From NCBI GenBank assembly GCA_951406725.2, contig OX597821.1:92566001-92630000 (forward strand): a DNA stretch of 64,000 bases. Reading direction: 5' to 3'. A model generated the notes under the pieces. The model saw only the letters and a list, made by a program, of their open reading frames with translations, was not told the origin of the DNA and did not search any database. A program made the translations under genes and the position numbers. Source of the DNA: Octopus vulgaris (lineage: Eukaryota). Shown here in pieces: positions 4,250 through 61,549 of the stretch (within the stretch, counting starts at the first letter, position 1; each line of letters starts with the position of its first letter).

Positions 4250-4660
4250 GGCGCCGGAGTGGCTGTGTGGAAAGTAGCTTGCTTACCAACCACATGGTTC
4301 CGGCTTCAGTCCCACTGCATGGCACCTTGGGCAAGTGTCTTCTTCTATAGCCTCGGGCCGACCAAAGCCTTGTAAGTGGATTTGGTAGACGGAAACTGAA
4401 AGAAGCCTGTCGTATATATGTATATATATGTGTATGTGTGTGTTTGTGTCTCTGTGTTTGTCCCCCCCCCCCAACATCGCTTGACAACCGATGGTGGTGT
4501 GTTTACGTCCCCGTAACTTAGCGGTTCGGCAAAACAGACCGATAGAGTAAGTACTAGGCTTACAAAGAATAAGTCCTGGGGTTGATTTCCTCAACTAAAG
4601 GCGGTGCTCCAGCATGGCCGCAGTCAAATGACTGAAACAAATAAAAGAGTAAAAGAGAGT
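4250..4660 (+). mobile_element. SINE family A (tRNA head + CORE-like domain), full length
   Basis: A box tggctgtgtgg, B-box-like ttcagtccc, CORE-like accttgggcaagt, internal (TA)/(TG) tract, (agtaaaag)n tail; more than 10 copies or fragments in the window. Confidence 0.9.
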
Positions 4661-6437: not shown

Positions 6438-6693
6438 GGTATCTAAAATATGTTAGGTTTGATTCTTGCTCTCACAACAAATATACATCTTGTCTTCATA
6501 TAAAATTTCAAAACAACAGAGAGTGCCTTTGCATATTGTTTTAGCATACGTTTCATTTAAATGGACAAATTCTATTAATATTAAACCACTAGGACTACCT
6601 AGATTAAGCCACCATTGGACTTGTCACGAAAACTGTTAACGTTGGTTTACTGGCTGCCTGTAAATGATGAACAACTATCGTGAACAATTATTC

Positions 6694-7261
6694 TTTTATC
6701 CTTTTACTTGTTTCAGGCATTTGATTGCGGCTATGCCGGAGCACTGCCTTTTAGTCGAACAGAACAACCCCCTTATTCTTTGTATTTATTCTATCGGTCC
6801 TTTTGTCAAGCGATCGGGGGACAAACACAGACACACAAATATATACGTGTACATATATATATATAGTTAGTTAATTCAAACAAGAAAGCACAAAAAAACA
6901 CAACAACGCGAGTACGTGGAACAAATATAGTATTATTGGACGCTCAGGAAAGAAGGAAAGAAGGAGGGTTTAACGTTTCGAGCGGAGCTCTTCGTCGGGA
7001 ACATAGGAGAAGGAAAGATCAAGAGAAGGGAAGACAGAGGGAAAAAAATCGCCAACGGTACACACGCAGTCACATTTTGAATGTGAATATATATATATAC
7101 GAAGGGATTCTTTCAGTTTCCGACTACCAAACCTACTCACAAGGCTTTAGTCGACCCGAAGCTACAGTAGAAGATACTTGCTTAAGGTGTCACGAAGTGG
7201 GACTGAACCCGGAACCATGTGGTTGGGAAGCAAGCTTTTTACCACACAGTCATGCCTGCGC
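6694..7261 (-). mobile_element. SINE family A, older copy interrupted at its (TA)n tract
   Basis: Both halves match family A; foreign insert at ~6866-7085. Confidence 0.8.
6968..7002 (-). ncRNA. Minimal type-I hammerhead-like motif (core variant CCGACGA)
   Basis: Minus strand: gttc-CCGACGA-A-GAGC-tcc-GCTC-GAAAC-GTT-aaac; palindromic ACGT stem III. Confidence 0.6.
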
Positions 7262-7674: not shown

Positions 7675-7891
7675 TTGTGTGTCTGTGTTTGTCCCCCTAG
7701 CATTGCTTGACAACCGATGCTGGTGCGTTTACGTCCCCGTCACTTAGCGGTTCGGCAAAAGAGACCGATAGAATAAGTACAGGGCTTACAAAGAATAAGT
7801 CCCGGGGTCGATTTGCTCGACTAAAGGCGGTGATCCAGTATGGCCGCAGTCAAATGACTGAAACAAGTAAAAGAGTAAAAGAGTAAAGAGT
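7466..7891 (+). mobile_element. SINE family A, full length
   Basis: Near-identical to the 4250-4660 copy. Confidence 0.9.
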
Positions 7892-8089: not shown

Positions 8090-9240
8090 TTTAAGTCTAA
8101 GCCGTCAGTTTTATTCGGCTATTTCAGCAACTTGGTTTCGGATCTGCTACAGGCTCTTTTGCCATAAGGAAATTTGGTGAAACCAATACTCTTGCTTTGG
8201 ACATCAGCAAAGATTCCGACCGTGTCAAGCATACGATTCTGGAATCAATAATTCCAACCTACGATCTCCGTCGATCTTTCAGATCGTGCCATCGCAGCGT
8301 GTGTTCGGGAATCTCTTTTTGAACCACTTTTAATCAAATCTGGTGTGATTCAAGCTTCACTTTTGCCGTCACACTCTTCCCTTTTATACTTCAACTAGCA
8401 GTATCGCCCGGCGTTGCTCGGGTTTGTAAGGGAAATAACTATATAAGCATTTTTAGAGAGTTACTTCCCTTATATAAACCAAGCAAAAAATGAGAAAAAA
8501 TGATGGTAAATTTTTTTAAAATCGTAGACTCATCGTAGACGCGCACTAATACCCAGAAGGGCTCGATGTGAATCACGACTAAAAGATATCCGCTTTTGGT
8601 TAAACTGCACCGCAAAATGTGGGAGTAGTTAGGAATCTAAATCGGAGGAGACAGACTCTCACACAACTTCAGTTTTATATATATAAAGATAACCTACTTG
8701 CCATCACTGCTTACAACACCAACTCTTATGCAGATAATATGACGTTCCATTCTTCTCCAAACTTCATCAACTACGCATCATCTACACACACACACCATGA
8801 CACTATCACACGGAATCTGTACTGACTTCATGAGCAGAGACCTCGAATGCATGTTCCTGTTGATCGATGCTGATCTTATCTCTTTGAACAGCAAAAACTC
8901 AAGTACTACAAATATACAGCAACTCCTTAAATATGAGCAACGCTCAACCCGAGCCGTCAGAGTCACTTTAAATGTAAGGCTTCACTATTGCGCTGAGAAT
9001 CCTTCTTGGTGAGAGCAGATGCTTGATATATCTAGAAGTACATCATAAAGAATGGCGCTTCTTTTCAGAGCCAGAAAATACTTCAGTCACTAACAACTGT
9101 TGATATTTTATAAATGTCAAGTGTAGCCAACGATTGAATATTGCACGACATCTGGGACAGTGCAGTGGCTATATACACAGACATTCTACACTGCATTCAA
9201 AGAAGACCTCCTTAACTGAGAGGCATTAAAAATCCCTTAC
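8090..9240 (+). pseudogene. Decayed CR1/Jockey-group LINE reverse transcriptase fragment
   Basis: Translates to GETNTLALDISKDSDRVKH (LDISKAFDRVWH motif), SGVIQAS and NSYADNMT (YADD-like). Split by the Helitron at 8395-8689. Confidence 0.75.
8395..8689 (-). mobile_element. Non-autonomous Helitron
   Basis: Minus strand starts a|TC and ends with hairpin cccgagcaacgccggg + CTAG|t; no TSD; 3 copies in the window. Confidence 0.85.
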
Positions 9241-11040: not shown

Positions 11041-11457
11041 TACTCTTTACTCTTTACTCTTTTATTTGTTTCAGTCATTTGACTGTGGCCATGCTGGAGC
11101 ACCGCCTTTAGTCGAGCAAATCGACCCCGGGACTTATTCTTTGTAAGCCTAGTACTTATTCTATTGTTCTCTTTTTGCCGAACCGCTAAGTGACGGGGAC
11201 GTAAGCACACCAGCATCAGTTGTCAAGCGATGTTGGGGAGACAAACACAGACACACACACACACACACATATATATACATATATATACATATATACGACA
11301 GGCTTCTTTCAGTTTCCGTCTACCAAATCCACTCACAAGGCATTGGTCAGCCCGGGGCTATAGCAGAAGACACTTGCCCAAGATGCCGCGCAGTGGGACT
11401 GAATCCGGAACAATGTGGCTGGTTAGCAAGCTACTTACCACACAGCCACTTCTGCGC
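11041..11457 (-). mobile_element. SINE family A, full length
   Basis: Reverse complement of family A. Confidence 0.9.
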
Positions 11458-15270: not shown

Positions 15271-15973
15271 AACCAGAATGTAAAAATTAAATTTAAAATA
15301 CATTAAAAGAAAAATGGAAGAAATTGAAGAAATTCTGTGAAAATATTTGAAATTTCACGAACAATTTTCCCTAGAAATGAAAATAAGTCATCAATCAATT
15401 TGTTTTATTTCTAAAATGATCTACAAATTTAAGCGAATGACATCAAATCTAATGGACATTACGTTTGCTTGCATCTATGATAAATTAAGCCTCATTATTG
15501 TCTCCTCTCCCTCTTCCTCACACTCTCTCTCTATATATATATATATGTCTTTCTGATGCACTCTCTCTTCCATCATCCTCATCACTACCTAATCTTTCTT
15601 TCTATGTCTCTCTCTCTCTCTCTCTCTTTTTTCTTTTTCTCTCACACGATGAATGGCATCATGGGAATTGTCTCAGAGATTAAATTTAAAATTATAGATT
15701 AGGTTTCGTCTAATTGTAGGTATCCGAGGAAGGTGTTTAAAAGATTGCGAAAGTTCAGGAGATGCACGATTAGATGTTTTATGCTGCACTGCTGTTTTGT
15801 ACCAACCCGCCACTCCCACGACCACTACCACCACCACCACTACCAACACCAACACCTCTACTACTAATAACAACAATGATGATGATGACGACGACAACAA
15901 CAACAAAGATGATGATGATGATGATGTCAAAATGAAGGAGGAACAGGAGGGGAGAAGGAGGAGATTAATAATG

Positions 15974-16025
<52 letters not shown>

Positions 16026-16060
16026 TAATAATAATAATAATGATAATAATAATAATAATG

Positions 16061-16133
<73 letters not shown>

Positions 16134-16350
16134 TAATAATAATAATAATGATAATAATAATAATAATACTAATTTCTATCATACCACTATTATTGATTAA
16201 AAGATATTCCTAAATCCCATTTTAAATGTAAATTATTGCAAATGTGTAATGATTTATGCAGATAATTATGTGCTGATACATGTGTAGATATGTATGGGTA
16301 CATGTATGTCTTAGTATGCATGTAGGGGTATATGATAGTGTGTATATACA

Positions 16351-26235: not shown

Positions 26236-26640
26236 GAGAGACAGAGAGAGAGAGAGAGAAAGAGAGACAGAGAAAGAGAGACAGAGAGATACATATACAT
26301 ATACACACAGGATATATATAAAACAAGAACTGAACAGAAAGAACACACACACACACACACATATATATATGTGTGTATGTATGTATATATACATGTATGT
26401 ATATATAAACTTATACATACATTTATATATATATATCTGTATATATATATATATATACATATATATACATATATATATACACACACACACACATATATAT
26501 ACACACATACATATATATGCAAATGTATGTATATGTTTATACACACACACACATATATAAACTAAACACATTAAATCATACGTTGATAAGTATATACAAA
26601 TATACATGTATGACTGTAGTGCTGTATGTATGTATAAGTG
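25180..26640. repeat. Compound microsatellites (TA)n/(TG)n/(AG)n
   Basis: Seen directly. Confidence 0.9.
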
Positions 26641-27248
26641 TCTGAATATAATTGTTCCACTCTGTGTTCTTGTTAAAACGTGTATACATCTTTAAAAATC
26701 TTGGCATCCCATCTCCTACGAATTAGTTTACAACTATATTGAGCTTAGCACTTTATGACTCATGTTTTATTACCCATTTCTATTGCTTTATTCTAGAAAG
26801 TAAACAGAGATGTAATCTATTCTATAGGACATGGTGTATAGTGATCAAGTTTTCAACAATCACCCCTTGAACTGATGTCCTGACTCATTGTTTTTCCCTG
26901 GTGAAATAGTTTTTGCAGGTTATGTAATAATCATGCTTAGTAGGAATTATTGAAACAGCTGCAGAATGAATATTTTTCAATATTATGTTGCTTGTTCTTT
27001 CACTTTCATATATATGTATATATATATATATATATATATCGATAGGTGAATGAATTATCCTATGTTTACCGTCAACATGGAAAATTCGATGAACCAATAC
27101 CAGGGTAGCAAATTCATGTCAGAAACACGGTTGAAGTGACCTGTCCAAGGGTAGAAACTCTGGGTTCATGTGTAGAAATCTGTGTGTTATATATGAATAA
27201 ATAAATAAATAAATTGAGTTGAACGAAGATGTTAACAAAATTCCTTTA

Positions 27249-27330
27249 CTCTCGACATATGTTTCGAAGATAACATGGTTTTATTCCAAAGGAATAAATG
27301 GTGCAAGGTGCAATCTTCTCATCAGGAAAG
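27249..27330 (-). ncRNA. Type-I hammerhead ribozyme, canonical core
   Basis: Minus strand: ctttc-CTGATGA-GAAGAT..(tttattcc ttt ggaataaa)..ATCTTC-GAAAC-ATAT-GTC-gagag. 5-bp stem I, 6-bp stem II base, palindromic ACATATGT stem III, GUC cleavage triplet. Confidence 0.85.
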
Positions 27331-27446
27331 AAATAACTTTAATAGCATTCAGTTAATCACTATACATATCCATATATATATATAACAACGTCCTTGCGTT
27401 GTTGTGTTTTTTTGTGCTTTCTTGTTTGGATTAACTATATATATCC

Positions 27447-27502
<56 letters not shown>

Positions 27503-27790
27503 ATAACAAGTGAAGTGGCCAGTTAGAAAATATCAGTAACAGATGAGAGAGGTAAAGTTAATCACCACTGCAATATAGCTGTCTGATGTTACTACCATTT
27601 TAACCCCATGTAGCTCTTCCACCAGCTGCTTATAGGTCTAGTCCATATCCTGTATATATTATAAGCATGGGAGTGAACACCAAACCGCAACTGAGGATAG
27701 TCAGAATTACCCTGAAACCAAGTTGGTCTTGTGAACCTGTTGTCTGCTGAAGGATGGTAAAGGTGTATATATATATATTCAAATTCTTTT

Positions 27791-27879
27791 ACTTCCAACA
27801 CATGTTTCGAAGATATCACTGGTATTATTCCAAAGGAATAAAATGGTGTAAAACAATGTAATCTTCTCTTCAGGGAAAT
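27791..27879 (-). ncRNA. Type-I hammerhead ribozyme
   Basis: Minus strand: atttcc-CTGAAGA-GAAGAT..ATCTTC-GAAAC-ATGT-GTT-ggaagt; 6-bp stem I. Confidence 0.8.
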
Positions 27880-28277
27880 GAAGAAATTTCTATTTTTTAT
27901 TCTTTTTTCTAAAAATCTCCTTGTAGATATTGTTATAGAGCGTGCATACCGATGTAAAGATTGGCAGAAAGACACCTTTAGTTCATATAAGTGATATCTA
28001 TCATTACTTATAATTTAAACATTACTTTTCTTCTTACATTTCACATTCACTAGATATATCTTTTTCCAAGTCTATATGGTCTTATTTAATATACATATAG
28101 TTATATACTTCTCATTTATTTAGTTTTTCTTTCCTTTGTCCTCCTTCTTTCTATAGGCTACTTTTGACGTTATATCCTATTACGTTTTTTTGAAATAATC
28201 TTAATAGTGTTCAGTTAATCACTATACATATCCATCATTTTCTGTTAAGATGTCTTATTGACGAGTTTCCTTTTTTC

Positions 28278-28366
28278 ATTTCCCTGAAGAGAAGATTATA
28301 TTGTATTACACCATTTTATTCCTTTGGAATAATACCAGTGATATCTTTGAAACATGTGTCAGAAAT
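28278..28366 (+). ncRNA. Type-I hammerhead ribozyme (inverted partner of 27791-27879)
   Basis: atttcc-CTGAAGA-GAAGAT..ATCTTT-GAAAC-ATGT-GTC-agaaat; the differences near the core look like CpG decay. Confidence 0.75.
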
Positions 28367-29063
28367 AAAAAAATTTTTAATAACACCTGCGTTTAACTCC
28401 ATTCTACCTTTAAAAACAAGGAGTTGCAACCTTTTTACCTGTGTGATTTTTTGCTACCCTGGTACTATTTATATATTTTTTCCGTGTTAATTTTTAACAA
28501 GGGAAAAATACACACATTTATACATACACACACACGCATGTTCCTGCTATTTGTGTTCTGAGTTCAAATCACTCCATGTTCTATGTAGGAAGTTGAATTA
28601 ATCTGTTGTTCTGTTTAACATCATCATGTAGCATTTTATGTCTTCTTGACAGTTTCCAGTTTCCTCAATGTTGCAAGCATTTGGGTCAATTTTCTCATCA
28701 AATAGCACCATCTATCTTCCCCCACTTTCTTCAGGGTACCCTGGAAAATGCTTCCTATGCTGGCTAAAACCTACCACCATAATACACTTATTCCTATATT
28801 ATCCTTCTCATTAGCCCATTTTTGAAAATAAAAGGTTAACATCAATATTTTCTCTCTACAATGCTTTTATAACCATACACTTTTCTCTCTTTCCTACTCC
28901 TTTTTCTTTATTTATTTAAACTAACTTATGTGTTTATAGGTTTAGTTTTAGTATTATCTCCAAATTGCTTCACATATACATCATACCTTAGAATTTCAAC
29001 AATAGAGGCCAACAATTAACCTCTCATATGCCCACAAATTGAGATCATTTTAACTTGAATATT

Positions 29064-41772: not shown

Positions 41773-42120
41773 TCTTTTACTTGTTTCAGTCATTTGACTG
41801 CGGCCATGCTGGAGCACCGCCTTTAGTCGAGCAACTCGACCCCGGGACTTATTCTTTTTGTAAGCCCAGTACTTATTCTATCGGTCTCTTTTTGCCGAAC
41901 CGCCAGCTGACGGGGACGCAAACACACCAGCATCGGTTGTCAAGCAATGCTAGGGGAACAAACACACACACACAAACACACACACATACATATATATATA
42001 TACATATATACGACAGGCTTATTTCAGTTTCCATCTACCAAATCCACTCACAAGGCATTGGTCAGCCCGGGGCTATAGCAGAAGACACTTGCCCAAGATG
42101 CCACGCAGTGGGACTGAACC
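41773..42120 (-). mobile_element. SINE family A, 5'-truncated, inserted in the inverted repeat arm
   Basis: Family A match; interrupts the arm sequence caaggaaac|caatg. Confidence 0.9.
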
Positions 42121-46625: not shown

Positions 46626-47724
46626 TTATGAATAATTACATCTAGTAGTGGTGAGAGAGTGAAGAAATGGTAAAGTATCACCATTTAATTGGTGTACATT
46701 TAATTAAACTGTCGTACGTAAGACAAATTATCCAATGTCTGTGAGATGGTTATATATGAAAATTAAAAATTTCCAATACAGCTCTTCAAAAGCAGGCAAA
46801 AGTCTGAAAGCGATATCACTGCTTCATTGCTTATGCAATAAATGGCTTGCAAGAATTACTTTGAAAGATTCTAATCTGATAAATAATATGATTGGCAATA
46901 TCTATGAATATGAAAAAGCAAAAAGGAAAATGTAATTCTTAACTATCGCTGCAAAGAATGTAAAAGCATAAAATAGATAAAACAGCTAAAAACTATTTCA
47001 AGTTGCTAACCAATGAGAAACGCTTCTGTATAACTTAGTTGGTCAGTCATTCTGTTGTCAAAGCATTTATATCATTATATGACATTTGGCTGGCAGAGAT
47101 TGTTGACTCCTCTCACTTGCTGTAGTTATTTCCCCCCCCCACCTCTATTCCAGCAAAGAGAAAAAGAAAGAAAAAAAAGAAACCTTGTTTTACTTATTTA
47201 GTTCACTTTTTTTTATTTTTTTTTTTCACTGTATGAGACCTCACAGCACTTATAGAAATGCTTGGTCAGGATTAAAAGATATTATTGCTAGAAAATATAT
47301 CTGAAGAAATCACTGGTGCAATGAAGGAATCTCTATGTTGTCACTCAATCTGCTTGAAATAGCAGCCAAATTTCCCTCAAATTGCATTAAACCATGTTTA
47401 AAAATCAAAGGACATTGTGGATAATGTATTCCTAAAAGGGTAATTAAGATTGGAATGCCTTTTATAAAATGTCTGCTTGATCAGACCTAAACTATGTCTA
47501 CACACCAATAACAGGTAAAATTATGTGATGCAATGGTGCTAATTGCATGACAGGAAAAATAGGCAAAGGGTTAAAGCCCTGACTCATTCAGCTTTGAATC
47601 ATTAAATTAAAATGATTGTGTTTAGCTTTATAACTATTTTTTTTTTTTTCACTTGTTTCAGTCATTTTGACTGCGGCCATGCTGGAGCACCGCCTTTAAA
47701 AAAACAACTACTTACATGTTGAAA

Positions 47725-50742: not shown

Positions 50743-51148
50743 GGCGCAGGAGTGGCTGTGTGGTAAGTAGCTTGCTTACCAACCACATGGTTCCGGGTTC
50801 GGTCCCACTGCATGGCATGTTGGGCAAGTGTCTTCTACTATAGCCTCAGGCCGACCAAAGCCTTGTGAGTGAATTTGGTAGACGGAAATTGAAAGAAGCC
50901 TGTCGTATATATGTATATATATATATGTATGTGTATGTTTGTGTATCTGTGTTTGTCCCCCTGGCATTGCTTGACAACCGGTGCTGGTGTGTTTACATCG
51001 CCGTCACCTAGCGGTTCAGCAAAAGAGACCGATAGAATAAGTACTGGGCTTACAAAGAATAAGTCCTGGGGTCGATTTGCTCAACTAAAGGTGGTGCTCC
51101 AGCATGGCCGCAGTCAAATGACTGAAACAAGTAAAAGAGTAAAAGAGT
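50743..51148 (+). mobile_element. SINE family A, full length
   Basis: Family match. Confidence 0.9.
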
Positions 51149-53455: not shown

Positions 53456-53559
53456 TACTCTTACTCTCTTTTACTCTTTTACTTGTTTCAGTTATTTGAC
53501 TGCAGCCATGCTGGAGCACCACCTTTAGTCGAGCAAATCGACCTCAGGGCTTATTCTTT

Positions 53560-54030
53560 GTCTTTTGTCATTGCCTCTGTGAGGCCCAACGTTCGAAGGT
53601 CATGCTTCACCACCTCATCCCATGTCTTCCTGGGTCTCCCTCTTCCACAGGTTCCTTCCACTGTTAGTGAGTGACACTTCTTCACACATCTCTCCTCATC
53701 CATACACAGCAAATGACCATGCCAGCACACTTTTCTCTCTTGCATACCACATCTGATGTTTCTTGTATCCAGTATTTCTCTCAGGGTGCTCACACTCTGT
53801 TGTGTGTGCACACTGACAATACACATCAAGTGGATCATACTAGCTTCATTTCTTTCAAGCTTACACATGTCTTCAACAGTCATGGCCCGTGTTTCACTGC
53901 TGTGTAGCATGGCAGTTCATACACAAGCATCATACAATCTACCTTTCACCCTGAGTGAGAAGCCCTTTGTCGCACAGTAGAGGTAGGATCTTTCTGAACT
54001 TTGCCCAGGCTATTCTTTTTCTAGTGGCTA
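53560..54030 (-). pseudogene. RTE LINE ORF C-terminal remnant
   Basis: MLHSSET..KLERNEASM..WHGHLLCMDEERCVKK..GRGRPRKTWDEVVKHD. Confidence 0.85.
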
Positions 54031-54260: not shown

Positions 54261-54780
54261 GTGGAATTGGATCTCAAAGTATGTATAAAACTAAATATCA
54301 GGTTAATAATCCCTTTTGGACAGAAGTTCACGGCTGCTCTTAAAACATGAATTCACATCTTTCACAGATATGACAAGCATTCTACTATTGGACCAAAACA
54401 ATCCTTTGAATTTTTCTATCTGTTTTAGAAACTTCATTCTTACCAGCAAGAGAATGTAGAATAAATCGTTAATGGAATTGAATCTCAAACTATCTATAAA
54501 GTTATAAATAATAACATGTAAATATTGGGTTAAAAAACCGTTTTGGTTAGAAAATTCGAAAGCTACCTGTGGGATTTGAACCTACATCTCCTATAGACAT
54601 GGCAGGCGTCCTACCATTGAACCAAAGCAATCTTTTGAAATTATCCATTTTAGAACTTTTTTTTTTTTACTAGCGAGAATTGTGTGTTGATGGTATCATA
54701 AGAATTTATAAATCTTCAGGAGAATGTGAGATAACTGTTTTTTGAATTGGATCTTGAATTCAAATAAAGTTATAAATAGT
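54261..54780 (-). repeat. Diverged tandem repeat containing a tRNA-like segment
   Basis: Units begin gaattg(g/a)atct at ~54264, ~54475 and ~54744; A box tggttcaatgg and B box ggttcaaatcc at 54562-54630. Confidence 0.6.
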
Positions 54781-56945: not shown

Positions 56946-57687
56946 CAGACACACATACATACATACATGCACACACATATATATATACATATATGCACAC
57001 CTGTATATACATACATACTGGTACACACATATATATACATACATACATGCATACACACAGATACATATATACATACATATATACACACATACATACATAC
57101 ATGCACACATATATATATACATATATGCACACCTGTATATACATACATACTCGTACACACATATATATACTTACATGCATACACACAGATACATATATAT
57201 ACATACATATATACACACATACATACATACACGCACACATATATATATATATACATACGCACCTGTGTATACACACGTATGTGCATTCACAAGCACATGC
57301 ATCCACATTTCTTTTTGTCTTTGTCAATACAACTGCAGCAATTGTTACTGATATGCTGTTCTCATTGCAGCATCTATTGTTATATAAATTGGTTTATATC
57401 AACAGTTGGCTTACATAAGTTGTTGTGTTGTTGTTGCTCTGTGTTGTTGTTGTTGTTGCTGCTGCTGATGATGATCATGTTGTCATTATGGTTAATGCTG
57501 TTTGTGTTGGTGCCTCTTTTGTTGCTGTTGTTGCCACTGTGGTTGTTGTTGTTGTTACCATCTCTTTTGTTGTTTTAACAATTGTTGCTGTCGTTGTTGT
57601 TATGTTGAGGTTGTTGTTGGTGGTGTTGTTGTTGTTGTTGTTGTCGCTGCTGCTACTCTTACCACTGCAGCCGTTGTGTTGTCATTA

Positions 57688-57729
<42 letters not shown>

Positions 57730-57775
57730 GCTATTATTATCATCAATATCATTATTATTATCATTATTATTATTA

Positions 57776-57811
<36 letters not shown>

Positions 57812-57898
57812 TTATTATTATTATTATTATTATATTTATTATTATTATTATTACTATTATTATTATTATTATTTTTATTTTATTATTATTATTATTAC

Positions 57899-57930
<32 letters not shown>

Positions 57931-58100
57931 GTATTAGTATTATTATTATCATTATTATTATTATTATTATCACTATTATTATTACTATTATTATTACTAT
58001 TATTACTATTATTATTATTATTATTATTATCACTATCATTATTACTATTATCATTATTATCATTATTATCATTATCATTATTATCATTATCATTATTATC

Positions 58101-58183
<83 letters not shown>

Positions 58184-58491
58184 CATTATTATCATTATTA
58201 TTATTATTATTATTATAAACTTTATTAATATCATTATTATTGTTGTGGCTGTTGTTGTGGCTGCTGATGTCTCTGTCGTTCTTTTCACGGTTCTTTTTAG
58301 CTCTTAACGTTGTTGATGTTATTATCGTAGCTACAACTTCTGTGGCAGTTATCTCTGTTGTTGTTGTTGTTGTTGTAGCTTGTCATCATTCTAGCTTTTC
58401 TTGATGTTGTTGTTGTTCCCATTATTTTTGTTGCAAGCACTGCAATTGTTTTTATTACTGCCGCTGTTGTTCAACCTATTGTTCCTGTTCC

Positions 58492-61271: not shown

Positions 61272-61549
61272 TGCTGAGCTGACAGAATTAACAGTATGCT
61301 GGGTGAAATGCTTACTCTTTTACTTGTTTCGGTCATTTGAAAGTGGCCATGCTGGAGCACTGCATTTAGTCGAAGAAATCAACCCCAGAACTTATTCTTT
61401 GTAAGCCTAGTACTTATTCTATCGGTCTCTTTTGCTGAACCACTAAGTTACGAGGACGTAAACACACCAGCATCGGTTGTCAAGCAATGTTGGAGGGACA
61501 AATACAGACACACAAACATATAAACACACACACACACATATATATTATA

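Follow-up and report, generated by a model that had tools for sequence, protein, structure and literature searches.

The window analysed here is a 64,000-nt stretch of the Octopus vulgaris genome (assembly GCA_951406725.2, contig OX597821.1, positions 92,566,001 to 92,630,000 of the forward strand), in which three hammerhead ribozyme motifs, called A, B and C below, lie on copies of repeated DNA bordered by (TA)n runs (Table 1; window positions are used throughout). Copy A belongs to a family that we call F1. Copies B and C, together with an isolated 40-nt piece (27334-27373) between the 5′ end of copy A and a (TA)n run, belong to a second family, F2; both are families of Penelope-like elements (PLEs) and are related to each other. 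We consider it very probable that the three hammerheads are the terminal ribozymes of 5′-truncated copies of these two families, carried in their pseudo-long terminal repeats (pseudo-LTRs), and that the outward-facing pair formed by B and C is likely a by-product of insertion into (TA)n microsatellites and was not passed on as a unit.

Table 1 Hammerhead-bearing repeats and flanking features in the window (ORF, open reading frame; UTR, untranslated region)
Feature	Position	Strand	Description
(TA)n run	27008..27039	.	3′ end of copy A; target microsatellite or tail; read from the letters
Copy A	27040..27333	-	Long-form terminal 294 nt (pseudo-LTR part) of F1; 5′-truncated 9 nt ahead of the hammerhead core
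Hammerhead A	27248..27331	-	Core intact with GUC; cut predicted between 27254 and 27253; 18.0 bits for RF00163 over model positions 1-45
F2 3′UTR fragment	27334..27373	+	Head to head with copy A, then (TA)n 27374-27384; 91% identical to 28192-28235
(TA)n run	27766..27780	.	3′ end of copy B; L086/L087 matches start at 27766-27776
Copy B	27781..27887	-	Short-form F2 fragment; 5′-truncated ~14 nt ahead of the core; inverted repeat arm
Hammerhead B	27791..27879	-	Triplet GUU; predicted cut between 27797 and 27796; RF00163 20.3 bits
Copy C 5′ end, ORF remnant	27890..27994	+	Last 34 codons and stop; translation LFFILFSKNLLVDIVIERAYRCKDWQKDTFSSYK, then stop
Copy C 3′UTR	27995..28277	+	283 nt; contains the repeated segment 28192-28235; matches the L045 3′UTR; same sequence in 20 F2 loci
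Hammerhead C	28278..28366	+	Decayed; GUC; predicted cut after C28360; RF00163 20.4 bits
Copy C long-form tail	28367..28525	+	Post-hammerhead, homologous to 27248->27040; then CA/TA-rich run; L086/L087 matches stop at 28521-28525

All three motifs announced by a first-pass annotation of this DNA are present. They are of type I, and their cores can be read directly in the letters: CUGAUGA...GAAA...GUC in A, CUGAAGA...GAAA...GUU in B and CUGAAGA...GAAA...GUC in C. All three fit the core pattern CUGANGA...GAAA plus a triplet ending in H (not G); the U17 of hammerhead B is a still-allowed H, and its predicted cut falls after the U opposite 27797. Hammerhead A, for which the annotation had claimed a perfect core, three stems and GUC at 27249-27330 (minus strand), is intact. 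It reads on the minus strand CUUUC CUGAUGA GAAGAU (45 nt) AUCUUC GAAA C AUAU G UC / GAGAG, the slash marking the predicted cut, with a 5-bp helix I, a 6-bp helix II base and a 2-bp helix III with a palindromic AUAU loop, and our reading of the core places the predicted cut at the position already proposed, after the C opposite 27254. In hammerhead C, a G10.1-U11.1 pair closes helix II and a C-A mismatch occupies the first pair of helix I, both changes being at CpG sites. Helix II continues from its 6-bp base through an imperfect extension to an 8-bp hairpin, whose 17-nt tip (TTATTCCTTTGGAATAA) is identical in F1 and F2. Three copies of this tip are present in the window, where 100 shuffles gave 0.07 on average, and the core with the start of helix II gave three exact matches in the window and one match with one mismatch elsewhere, against a mean of 0.20.

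When the 29 proposed pairs, which make up three helices around the core with helix I open, were counted on 66 distinct copies, 92.3% of cells were paired, compared with 39-54% for slid partners, a lenient control in that the structure had been drawn from the same sequences. The helix I pair 13-98 is U-A in 47 rows (F1) and C-G in 16 rows (F2), and several other pairs change on one side only. Pairing and covariation lend modest support to the predicted ribozyme fold, limited by the youth of the copies and by the derivation of the structure from these very sequences. Folded as single strands, the three motifs were not distinctive (z from -0.35 to -1.28); the monomer fold of hammerhead B lies within 0.3 kcal/mol of the minimum. 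The predicted homodimers, in which the extended helix III forms, are favoured over two monomers by 7 kcal/mol for A (-39.8 versus -32.8) and by 10 kcal/mol for B (-47.6 versus -37.4), a prediction in keeping with the dimer model of Cervera and de la Pena.

The arrangement of the repeats was also largely as first described. Hammerheads B and C face outward on inverted arms of 106 nt (27781-27886 and 28271-28376) that are 92% complementary, with 384 nt between them where a spacer of ~400 nt had been claimed. The sequence beyond the third hammerhead, 28367-28525, aligns as proposed with the reverse complement of 27040-27248, TTGCTACCCTGGTA included, with a ~50-nt deletion in copy C. The sequence noticed at both ~27348 and ~28210 is a 44-nt segment, present at 27330-27373 and 28192-28235 on the same strand with 91% identity. 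The 26-mer that the annotation had seen repeated belongs to the F2 3′UTR and has 621 matches in the genome with at most two mismatches, compared with none for the reversed control, and the repeated F2 3′UTR segment lies 43 nt upstream of a same-strand F2 hammerhead in 20 of 20 other loci. Copy C is truncated inside the endonuclease domain, with its 5′ end joined head to head to copy B, and the ORF ending that it retains (LFFILFSKNLLVDIVIERAYRCKDWQKDTFSSYK and stop) is also read in the F2 copies L088-L094 and in the F1 copy L045. At the 3′ end, the matches of other F1 copies extend into (TA)n runs of their own. The stretch after the 40-nt F2 piece (27385-27455, aacaacgtccttgcgttgttg...) has high summed depth in contigs of four runs and is for that reason itself repeated.

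We searched the 2.8-Gb genome for the 3′ unit with a 341-nt query around copy A and obtained at least 3898 first-look candidates. Forty were scored, including 39 other copies at 91-95% identity, and the matches of all 39 begin at the same query position, 9 nt ahead of the core. This shared start is the end point of the window copy, because the other loci (29 of 29) continue upstream: there they share a motif upstream of the hammerhead, with a continuation of 37 to 1427 nt that copy A does not have. First-look candidates fell from 3898 for the 3′ end to 941 for the middle and 101 for the 5′ part, which is the pattern of 5′ truncation, and truncation points vary among copies. From longer fetches and searches with more 5′ pieces, the element measures ~3.1 kb in L045.

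Four overlapping frames cover the element in L045. The first 332 aa (L045 6281-7279) have 181 homologues at E ≤ 0.001, the best being P0001 (803 aa; E 1.8e-78, 45% identity, 95% coverage), and the frame at 8182-8676 aligns with the C-terminal GIY-YIG part of P0001 (E 3e-16) and has a weak Pfam GIY-YIG match (E 0.011). P0001 and a second homologue, P0013, carry the motifs RW(R/K) (RWR in P0001, RWK in P0013), DKT, KDHK and YRDD, a CxCX5C linker, a GIY-YIG domain, and CxxC and CxH motifs. The start was located in 12 copies, all with RWL as the N-terminal motif; DKT was read in five copies (L073, L074, L076, L078 and L082), and the CxxC and CxH motifs near the C-terminus take the form FCNIC...CKH in F1 and CLLC...CKH in F2. 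Only one Cys stands between the GIY-like and YIG motifs of F1 and F2, and neither family has a CCHH motif. The ORFs of both families contain a long Asn-rich (AAT-type) insert just upstream of the linker and endonuclease domain, and the hammerhead follows the stop codon at a distance of ~270 nt in related loci. Judged by these related loci, the ORF encodes a PLE-type reverse transcriptase with a GIY-YIG endonuclease after it. The only named close homologue is from Argonauta hians; its name, 'GATA zinc finger domain-containing protein 14-like', is owed to the long Asn-rich insert. Long AAT-type simple repeats occur in the window at 15970-16174 and 57679-58216, and their likeness to the Asn-rich coding insert is one of composition only.

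Sixteen loci were found with the 5′ part of the element. In eight, the 294 nt with the hammerhead immediately precede the ORF in its own orientation, with ~66 nt between them and the ATG, and in three an inverted copy precedes the ORF. Because the same unit directly precedes the ORF start in full-length copies, the 294 nt constitute a direct pseudo-LTR, with the hammerhead inside it. Every copy has (TA)n at both ends. Dispersed copies have two alternative end points in (TA)n, which lie 66 and 214 nt past the predicted cut and both fall on UA-rich stretches (TTCATATATAAC and CGAAATATTC). Where the loci had not been selected by tail, 39 copies divided into 23 with the long end, 15 with the short one and one cut by the end of the locus. 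The element also occurs as a tandem array on C20 with a copy period of ~3.2-3.7 kb: at least eight copies of its 5′ part lie at this spacing in C20:23330031-23354514 of G000, two of them on the opposite strand, and this locus could be a source of multimeric transcripts.

We also examined the sequence at the predicted cut. The 23-mer that follows it has 1024 exact copies in the genome, preceded by C in 1015 and by A or G in nine; the nine comprise six plain substitutions and three junctions. Seven copies start exactly at the predicted cut (L021, L036, L038, L039, L097, L099 and L101). An excess of 5′ ends at this point was not shown, the count having covered the cut position alone, with no control position.

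Outward-facing pairs recur in the genome. Nine of 29 F1 loci contain a head-to-head pair, with spacers of 32, 47, 79, 104, 207, 244, 244, 643 and 1243 nt that are built from the upstream sequence of the two elements, and their break points differ. A genome-wide listing for the 24-mer at the cut yielded, by our count over its first 100 places, 17 close pairs (neighbours within 3 kb), of which 15 were divergent, one tandem (2184 nt apart) and one convergent; no spacing recurs among the 15 divergent pairs, which lie 34 to 2232 nt apart. The junction between B and C is spanned by two of 42 other matches, L086 and L087, the other 40 stopping at it, and both break elsewhere, ~20-35 nt from the window's break points on both arms. 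Two near-coincident junctions among thousands of copies would not be surprising, by our estimate. The junction between copy A and the 44-nt segment is spanned by a single weak match out of 42, at 77% identity. Since spacings and break points differ, the layout appears to be a recurrent insertion product and not a transmitted unit, likely made anew at each insertion. The first-pass annotation had taken the arrangement of hammerhead, spacer and opposed hammerhead for a heritable family architecture as opposed to a one-off inversion. It was right that such pairs recur, and went too far in having them inherited as a unit: the spacer that it regarded as conserved is the ORF end and 3′UTR of copy C, not a separate module, and the other copies examined for both hammerheads with the same spacer have variable junctions, an outcome it had named beforehand as speaking against its proposal. 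Nor did the annotation identify the whole arrangement as derived from a Penelope-like retrotransposon.

These observations suggest the following mechanism. On a (TA)n target that has been nicked, reverse transcription would begin within an RNA longer than one unit, at its UA-rich sites, and every new copy would for this reason carry a ribozyme near its 3′ end. Priming from both target strands would produce a second, inverted and truncated copy at the 5′ side of the first. In multimeric transcripts, cleavage by this ribozyme, whose helix III has 2 bp and a palindromic loop, would take place in a dimer or be assisted by protein. Copy A of the window would then be a lone F1 end, and B and C a single head-to-head F2 pair. 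Parts of this scheme have precedents. For an Anolis PLE in vitro, reverse transcription starts internally at two sites downstream of the hammerhead, and both DNA strands are cut and extended (PMC11167929); PMC8557442 describes inverted 5′-truncated copies and (TA)n targets for PLEs, and PMC4209133 reports PLE repeats carrying hammerheads, with some pairs on opposite strands 100-700 bp apart.

Several results weigh against our interpretation. Rfam returned no hammerhead on the whole window at gathering scores (a tRNA-like match only) and none on the 2.5 kb of 26500-29000 at E ≤ 10. Narrow query stretches of ~110-120 nt aligned all 45 positions of the Hammerhead_1 model (RF00163) at the coordinates first annotated for A, B and C, with scores of 18.0 bits (E 0.037), 20.3 bits (E 0.007) and 20.4 bits (E 0.0066), all of them under the gathering score of 34 bits. 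The alignments contain an insert of 49-54 nt where the model has 10 positions, in helix II, and this insert accounts for the sub-threshold scores; the motifs are hammerhead-shaped and outside the curated Rfam score range. The covariation amounts essentially to one compensatory event between the two families, and the monomer fold of hammerhead A (-11.6 kcal/mol) lies 4.8 kcal/mol above the minimum (-16.4). The window keeps only the last 34 codons of the ORF, so that the link to a reverse transcriptase and endonuclease rests on related loci, and among these no Pfam reverse transcriptase family was found on the ORF pieces or their homologues and the GIY-YIG match stayed under the cut-off. At the positions of the CxCX5C linker no cysteine is present in F1 (L031, L045) or F2 (L089, L092), all four linker Cys being replaced, a comparison that rests on decayed copies although both families agree; F1 and F2 copies end in (TA)n despite this linker. 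Priming on both strands is borrowed from a different PLE clade, that of the Anolis element, in vitro. The only data that bear on cleavage are the contigs of the four runs, whose RNA nature is a guess: some of them bridge the predicted cut, and they reveal no RNA starts or ends. Finally, the mean identity to nine F2 copies is 97.2% for B and 91.6% for C, a poor fit to one simultaneous event.

This last difference leads to the strongest alternative, in which B and C are separate insertions into one (TA)n tract, a younger B having landed beside the 5′ end of an older C as the element homed to the (TA)n of its own copies. At least 15 copies match B at 99-100% identity over 88 nt, compared with 88-94% on the C side, and the (TA)n runs at both ends of every copy would offer the target; C may already have been in place when B joined the adjacent (TA)n. 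The identity gap itself rests on ~106 nt, or roughly one to two versus eight private changes. Independent insertions would moreover predict equal orientations, and the observed ratio is 15:1:1 for divergent, tandem and convergent pairs, a bias that argues for a coupled origin of pairs in general. Partner arms are 95.1-98.7% identical, with non-partner means of 93.5-97.4%, too close to tell joint origin. In one locus, L012:858-1500, the 643-nt spacer is a near-perfect palindrome and both arms carry the same private change (CCACGTAGG), which means that these arms derive from one template; the layout there resembles a product of snap-back or foldback synthesis more than one of two truncations. 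We regard separate insertion as a tentative account of B and C, possible but somewhat unlikely.

It is much less probable that the outward pair is a composite copied whole with a conserved spacer. L086 (85% identity) and L087 (77-83%) are collinear with all of 27766-28525 and end where the composite ends, as this account would have it, and three loci of G000 on different contigs, L036 (C30:20.06 Mb), L038 (C31:1.41 Mb) and L039 (C5:147.5 Mb), share one junction within 1 nt. In these three, an inverted mini-copy that starts exactly at the predicted cut (..CTCTC/) adjoins a direct copy, the truncation of which falls at one shared ORF position (CCTTGTTAAAAGC); as an exception to the general pattern, this composite may have been duplicated whole. 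Against a copied composite in the window stand the displaced break points of L086 and L087 on both arms, the 40 of 42 matches that stop at the B/C junction, the spread of spacers in the nine loci and of spacings in the 15 divergent pairs, and the junction of copy A with the 44-nt segment, which recurs once more at best.

Most improbable of all is that the units are non-LTR retrozymes or a hammerhead-bearing short interspersed element (SINE), that is, short non-autonomous repeats that yield circular RNAs and are separate from the autonomous element: copy A taken alone does resemble a 294-nt SINE with a simple-repeat tail, and animal retrozymes share a type I hammerhead with a short helix III (PMC7229834 and preprint 10.64898/2026.07.22.740005), but the window has no short head-to-tail arrays, all 29 other copies extend upstream into the 3′UTR and ORF, and only one of the 17 close pairs is tandem.

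Truncated terminal copies of two PLE families, paired by insertion, are therefore the account that we prefer, and on it the cluster is nothing special and consists of ordinary terminal ribozymes of truncated PLEs: an arrangement striking in raw sequence is explained as ordinary retrotransposon debris. The object, truncated PLE copies of a Hydra-like lineage, is of a known kind, real but ordinary, and hammerhead pairs on opposite strands in PLEs are already published (PMC4209133). Only three points are unusual: helix II is oversized, the linker lacks its cysteines, and the two end sites are UA-rich. The first gives an example of how covariance-model scans miss ribozymes, a long helix II insert halving the score. 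The second indicates that (TA)n targeting persists without the linker cysteines that have been proposed to mediate it, and the third, with two 3′ ends on UA-rich stretches that match (TA)n, bears on how PLEs choose the start of reverse transcription. The handful of copies that start at the predicted cut is a lead on the role of hammerheads in endonuclease-bearing PLEs.

A bolder combination of these points seems to us unlikely as a whole, if not negligible. It would make F1 and F2 a derived Hydra-like lineage of cephalopod type that lost its zinc-finger-like linker and whose RNA pairs through its two internal UA-rich sites with nicked (TA)n, so that homing to (TA)n persists. The oversized helix II with its invariant 17-nt tip would be a protein handle coupling ribozyme folding to the start of reverse transcription, and the copies that begin at the cut would be reverse transcripts of self-cleaved RNA. 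If this were true, these copies would be direct genomic proof of PLE hammerhead cleavage in vivo.

Two further kinds of repeat were noted in the window. Nine copies of another short interspersed repeat of ~120 nt lie at 4538-4656, 6689-6850, 7764-7885, 11048-11164, 41775-41885, 47629-47697, 51028-51146, 53467-53561 and 61318-61426, and the same repeat adjoins the element in L045 (9137-9303). A tRNA-like sequence at 54561-54631 (minus strand), with four non-standard pairs, scored 32.2 bits against an Rfam threshold of 29; instead of a gene, it may be a repeat derived from a tRNA.

Comparison with known systems places both families near published PLEs. As in the PLE hammerheads described by Cervera and de la Pena (2014, PMC4209133), the window motifs are of type I, lie in flanking repeats and combine a short helix III with a palindromic loop, features from which that work implies action as a dimer. 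The same paper reports thousands of mostly solitary copies from truncated elements, with some pairs on opposite strands, again as found here. Helix II is 6-8 bp in the motifs described there, whereas ours has an insert of 49-54 nt, and unlike the 'minimal' form of that account our motifs have a helix III (2 bp).

By their motifs, F1 and F2 appear closest to the published Hydra clade, and we refer to them as a Hydra-like lineage. According to Craig et al. (2021, PMC8557442), the marks of this clade (section 11) are RWK, DKT, a CxCX5C linker, CxxC and CxH, small size, hammerheads and (TA)n targets. Our families resemble it in being short (~3.1 kb compared with <3 kb), with one ORF whose GIY-YIG domain is C-terminal; in DKT, in CxxC and CxH near the end and in the single Cys where canonical PLEs have CCHH; and in a canonical hammerhead near the 3′ end with insertion into (TA)n. 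They differ in the replaced linker cysteines (CxCX5C and the next C) of both F1 and F2, in having RWL where the clade has RWK, and in the long Asn-rich insert before the endonuclease domain. The supplement of the same paper lists an octopus element, Hydra-1_Obim, of 2507 bp with (TA)n and 'no pLTR'; in the hammerhead given for it, helix II measures 7 bp with an 8-nt loop and helix III 4 bp. The window families differ from it, since the helix lengths of their hammerheads differ, and they have direct pseudo-LTRs.

The closest biochemical parallel in our comparison is Poseidon PAc of Anolis carolinensis (Frangieh et al. 2024, PMC11167929), in which, as we infer for F1 and F2, reverse transcription can begin at two sites within the RNA, both downstream of the hammerhead, which give two alternative 3′ ends. 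Both systems have AT-rich targets; the PAc protein cuts and extends both strands and its ribozyme is protein-assisted. The two ends lie 148 nt apart here compared with 30-40 nt in PAc, they fall upstream of the ORF start here and inside the ORF in PAc, and they sit on UA-rich stretches that match (TA)n, unlike the PAc start site, which is not homologous to its target. Animal non-LTR retrozymes (Cervera and de la Pena 2020, PMC7229834; preprint by Li et al. 2026) carry the same type I hammerhead and have been proposed to originate from PLE pseudo-LTRs; they are short tandem repeats with no ORF, whereas the copies in the window are dispersed, 5′-truncated pieces of an ORF-bearing element.

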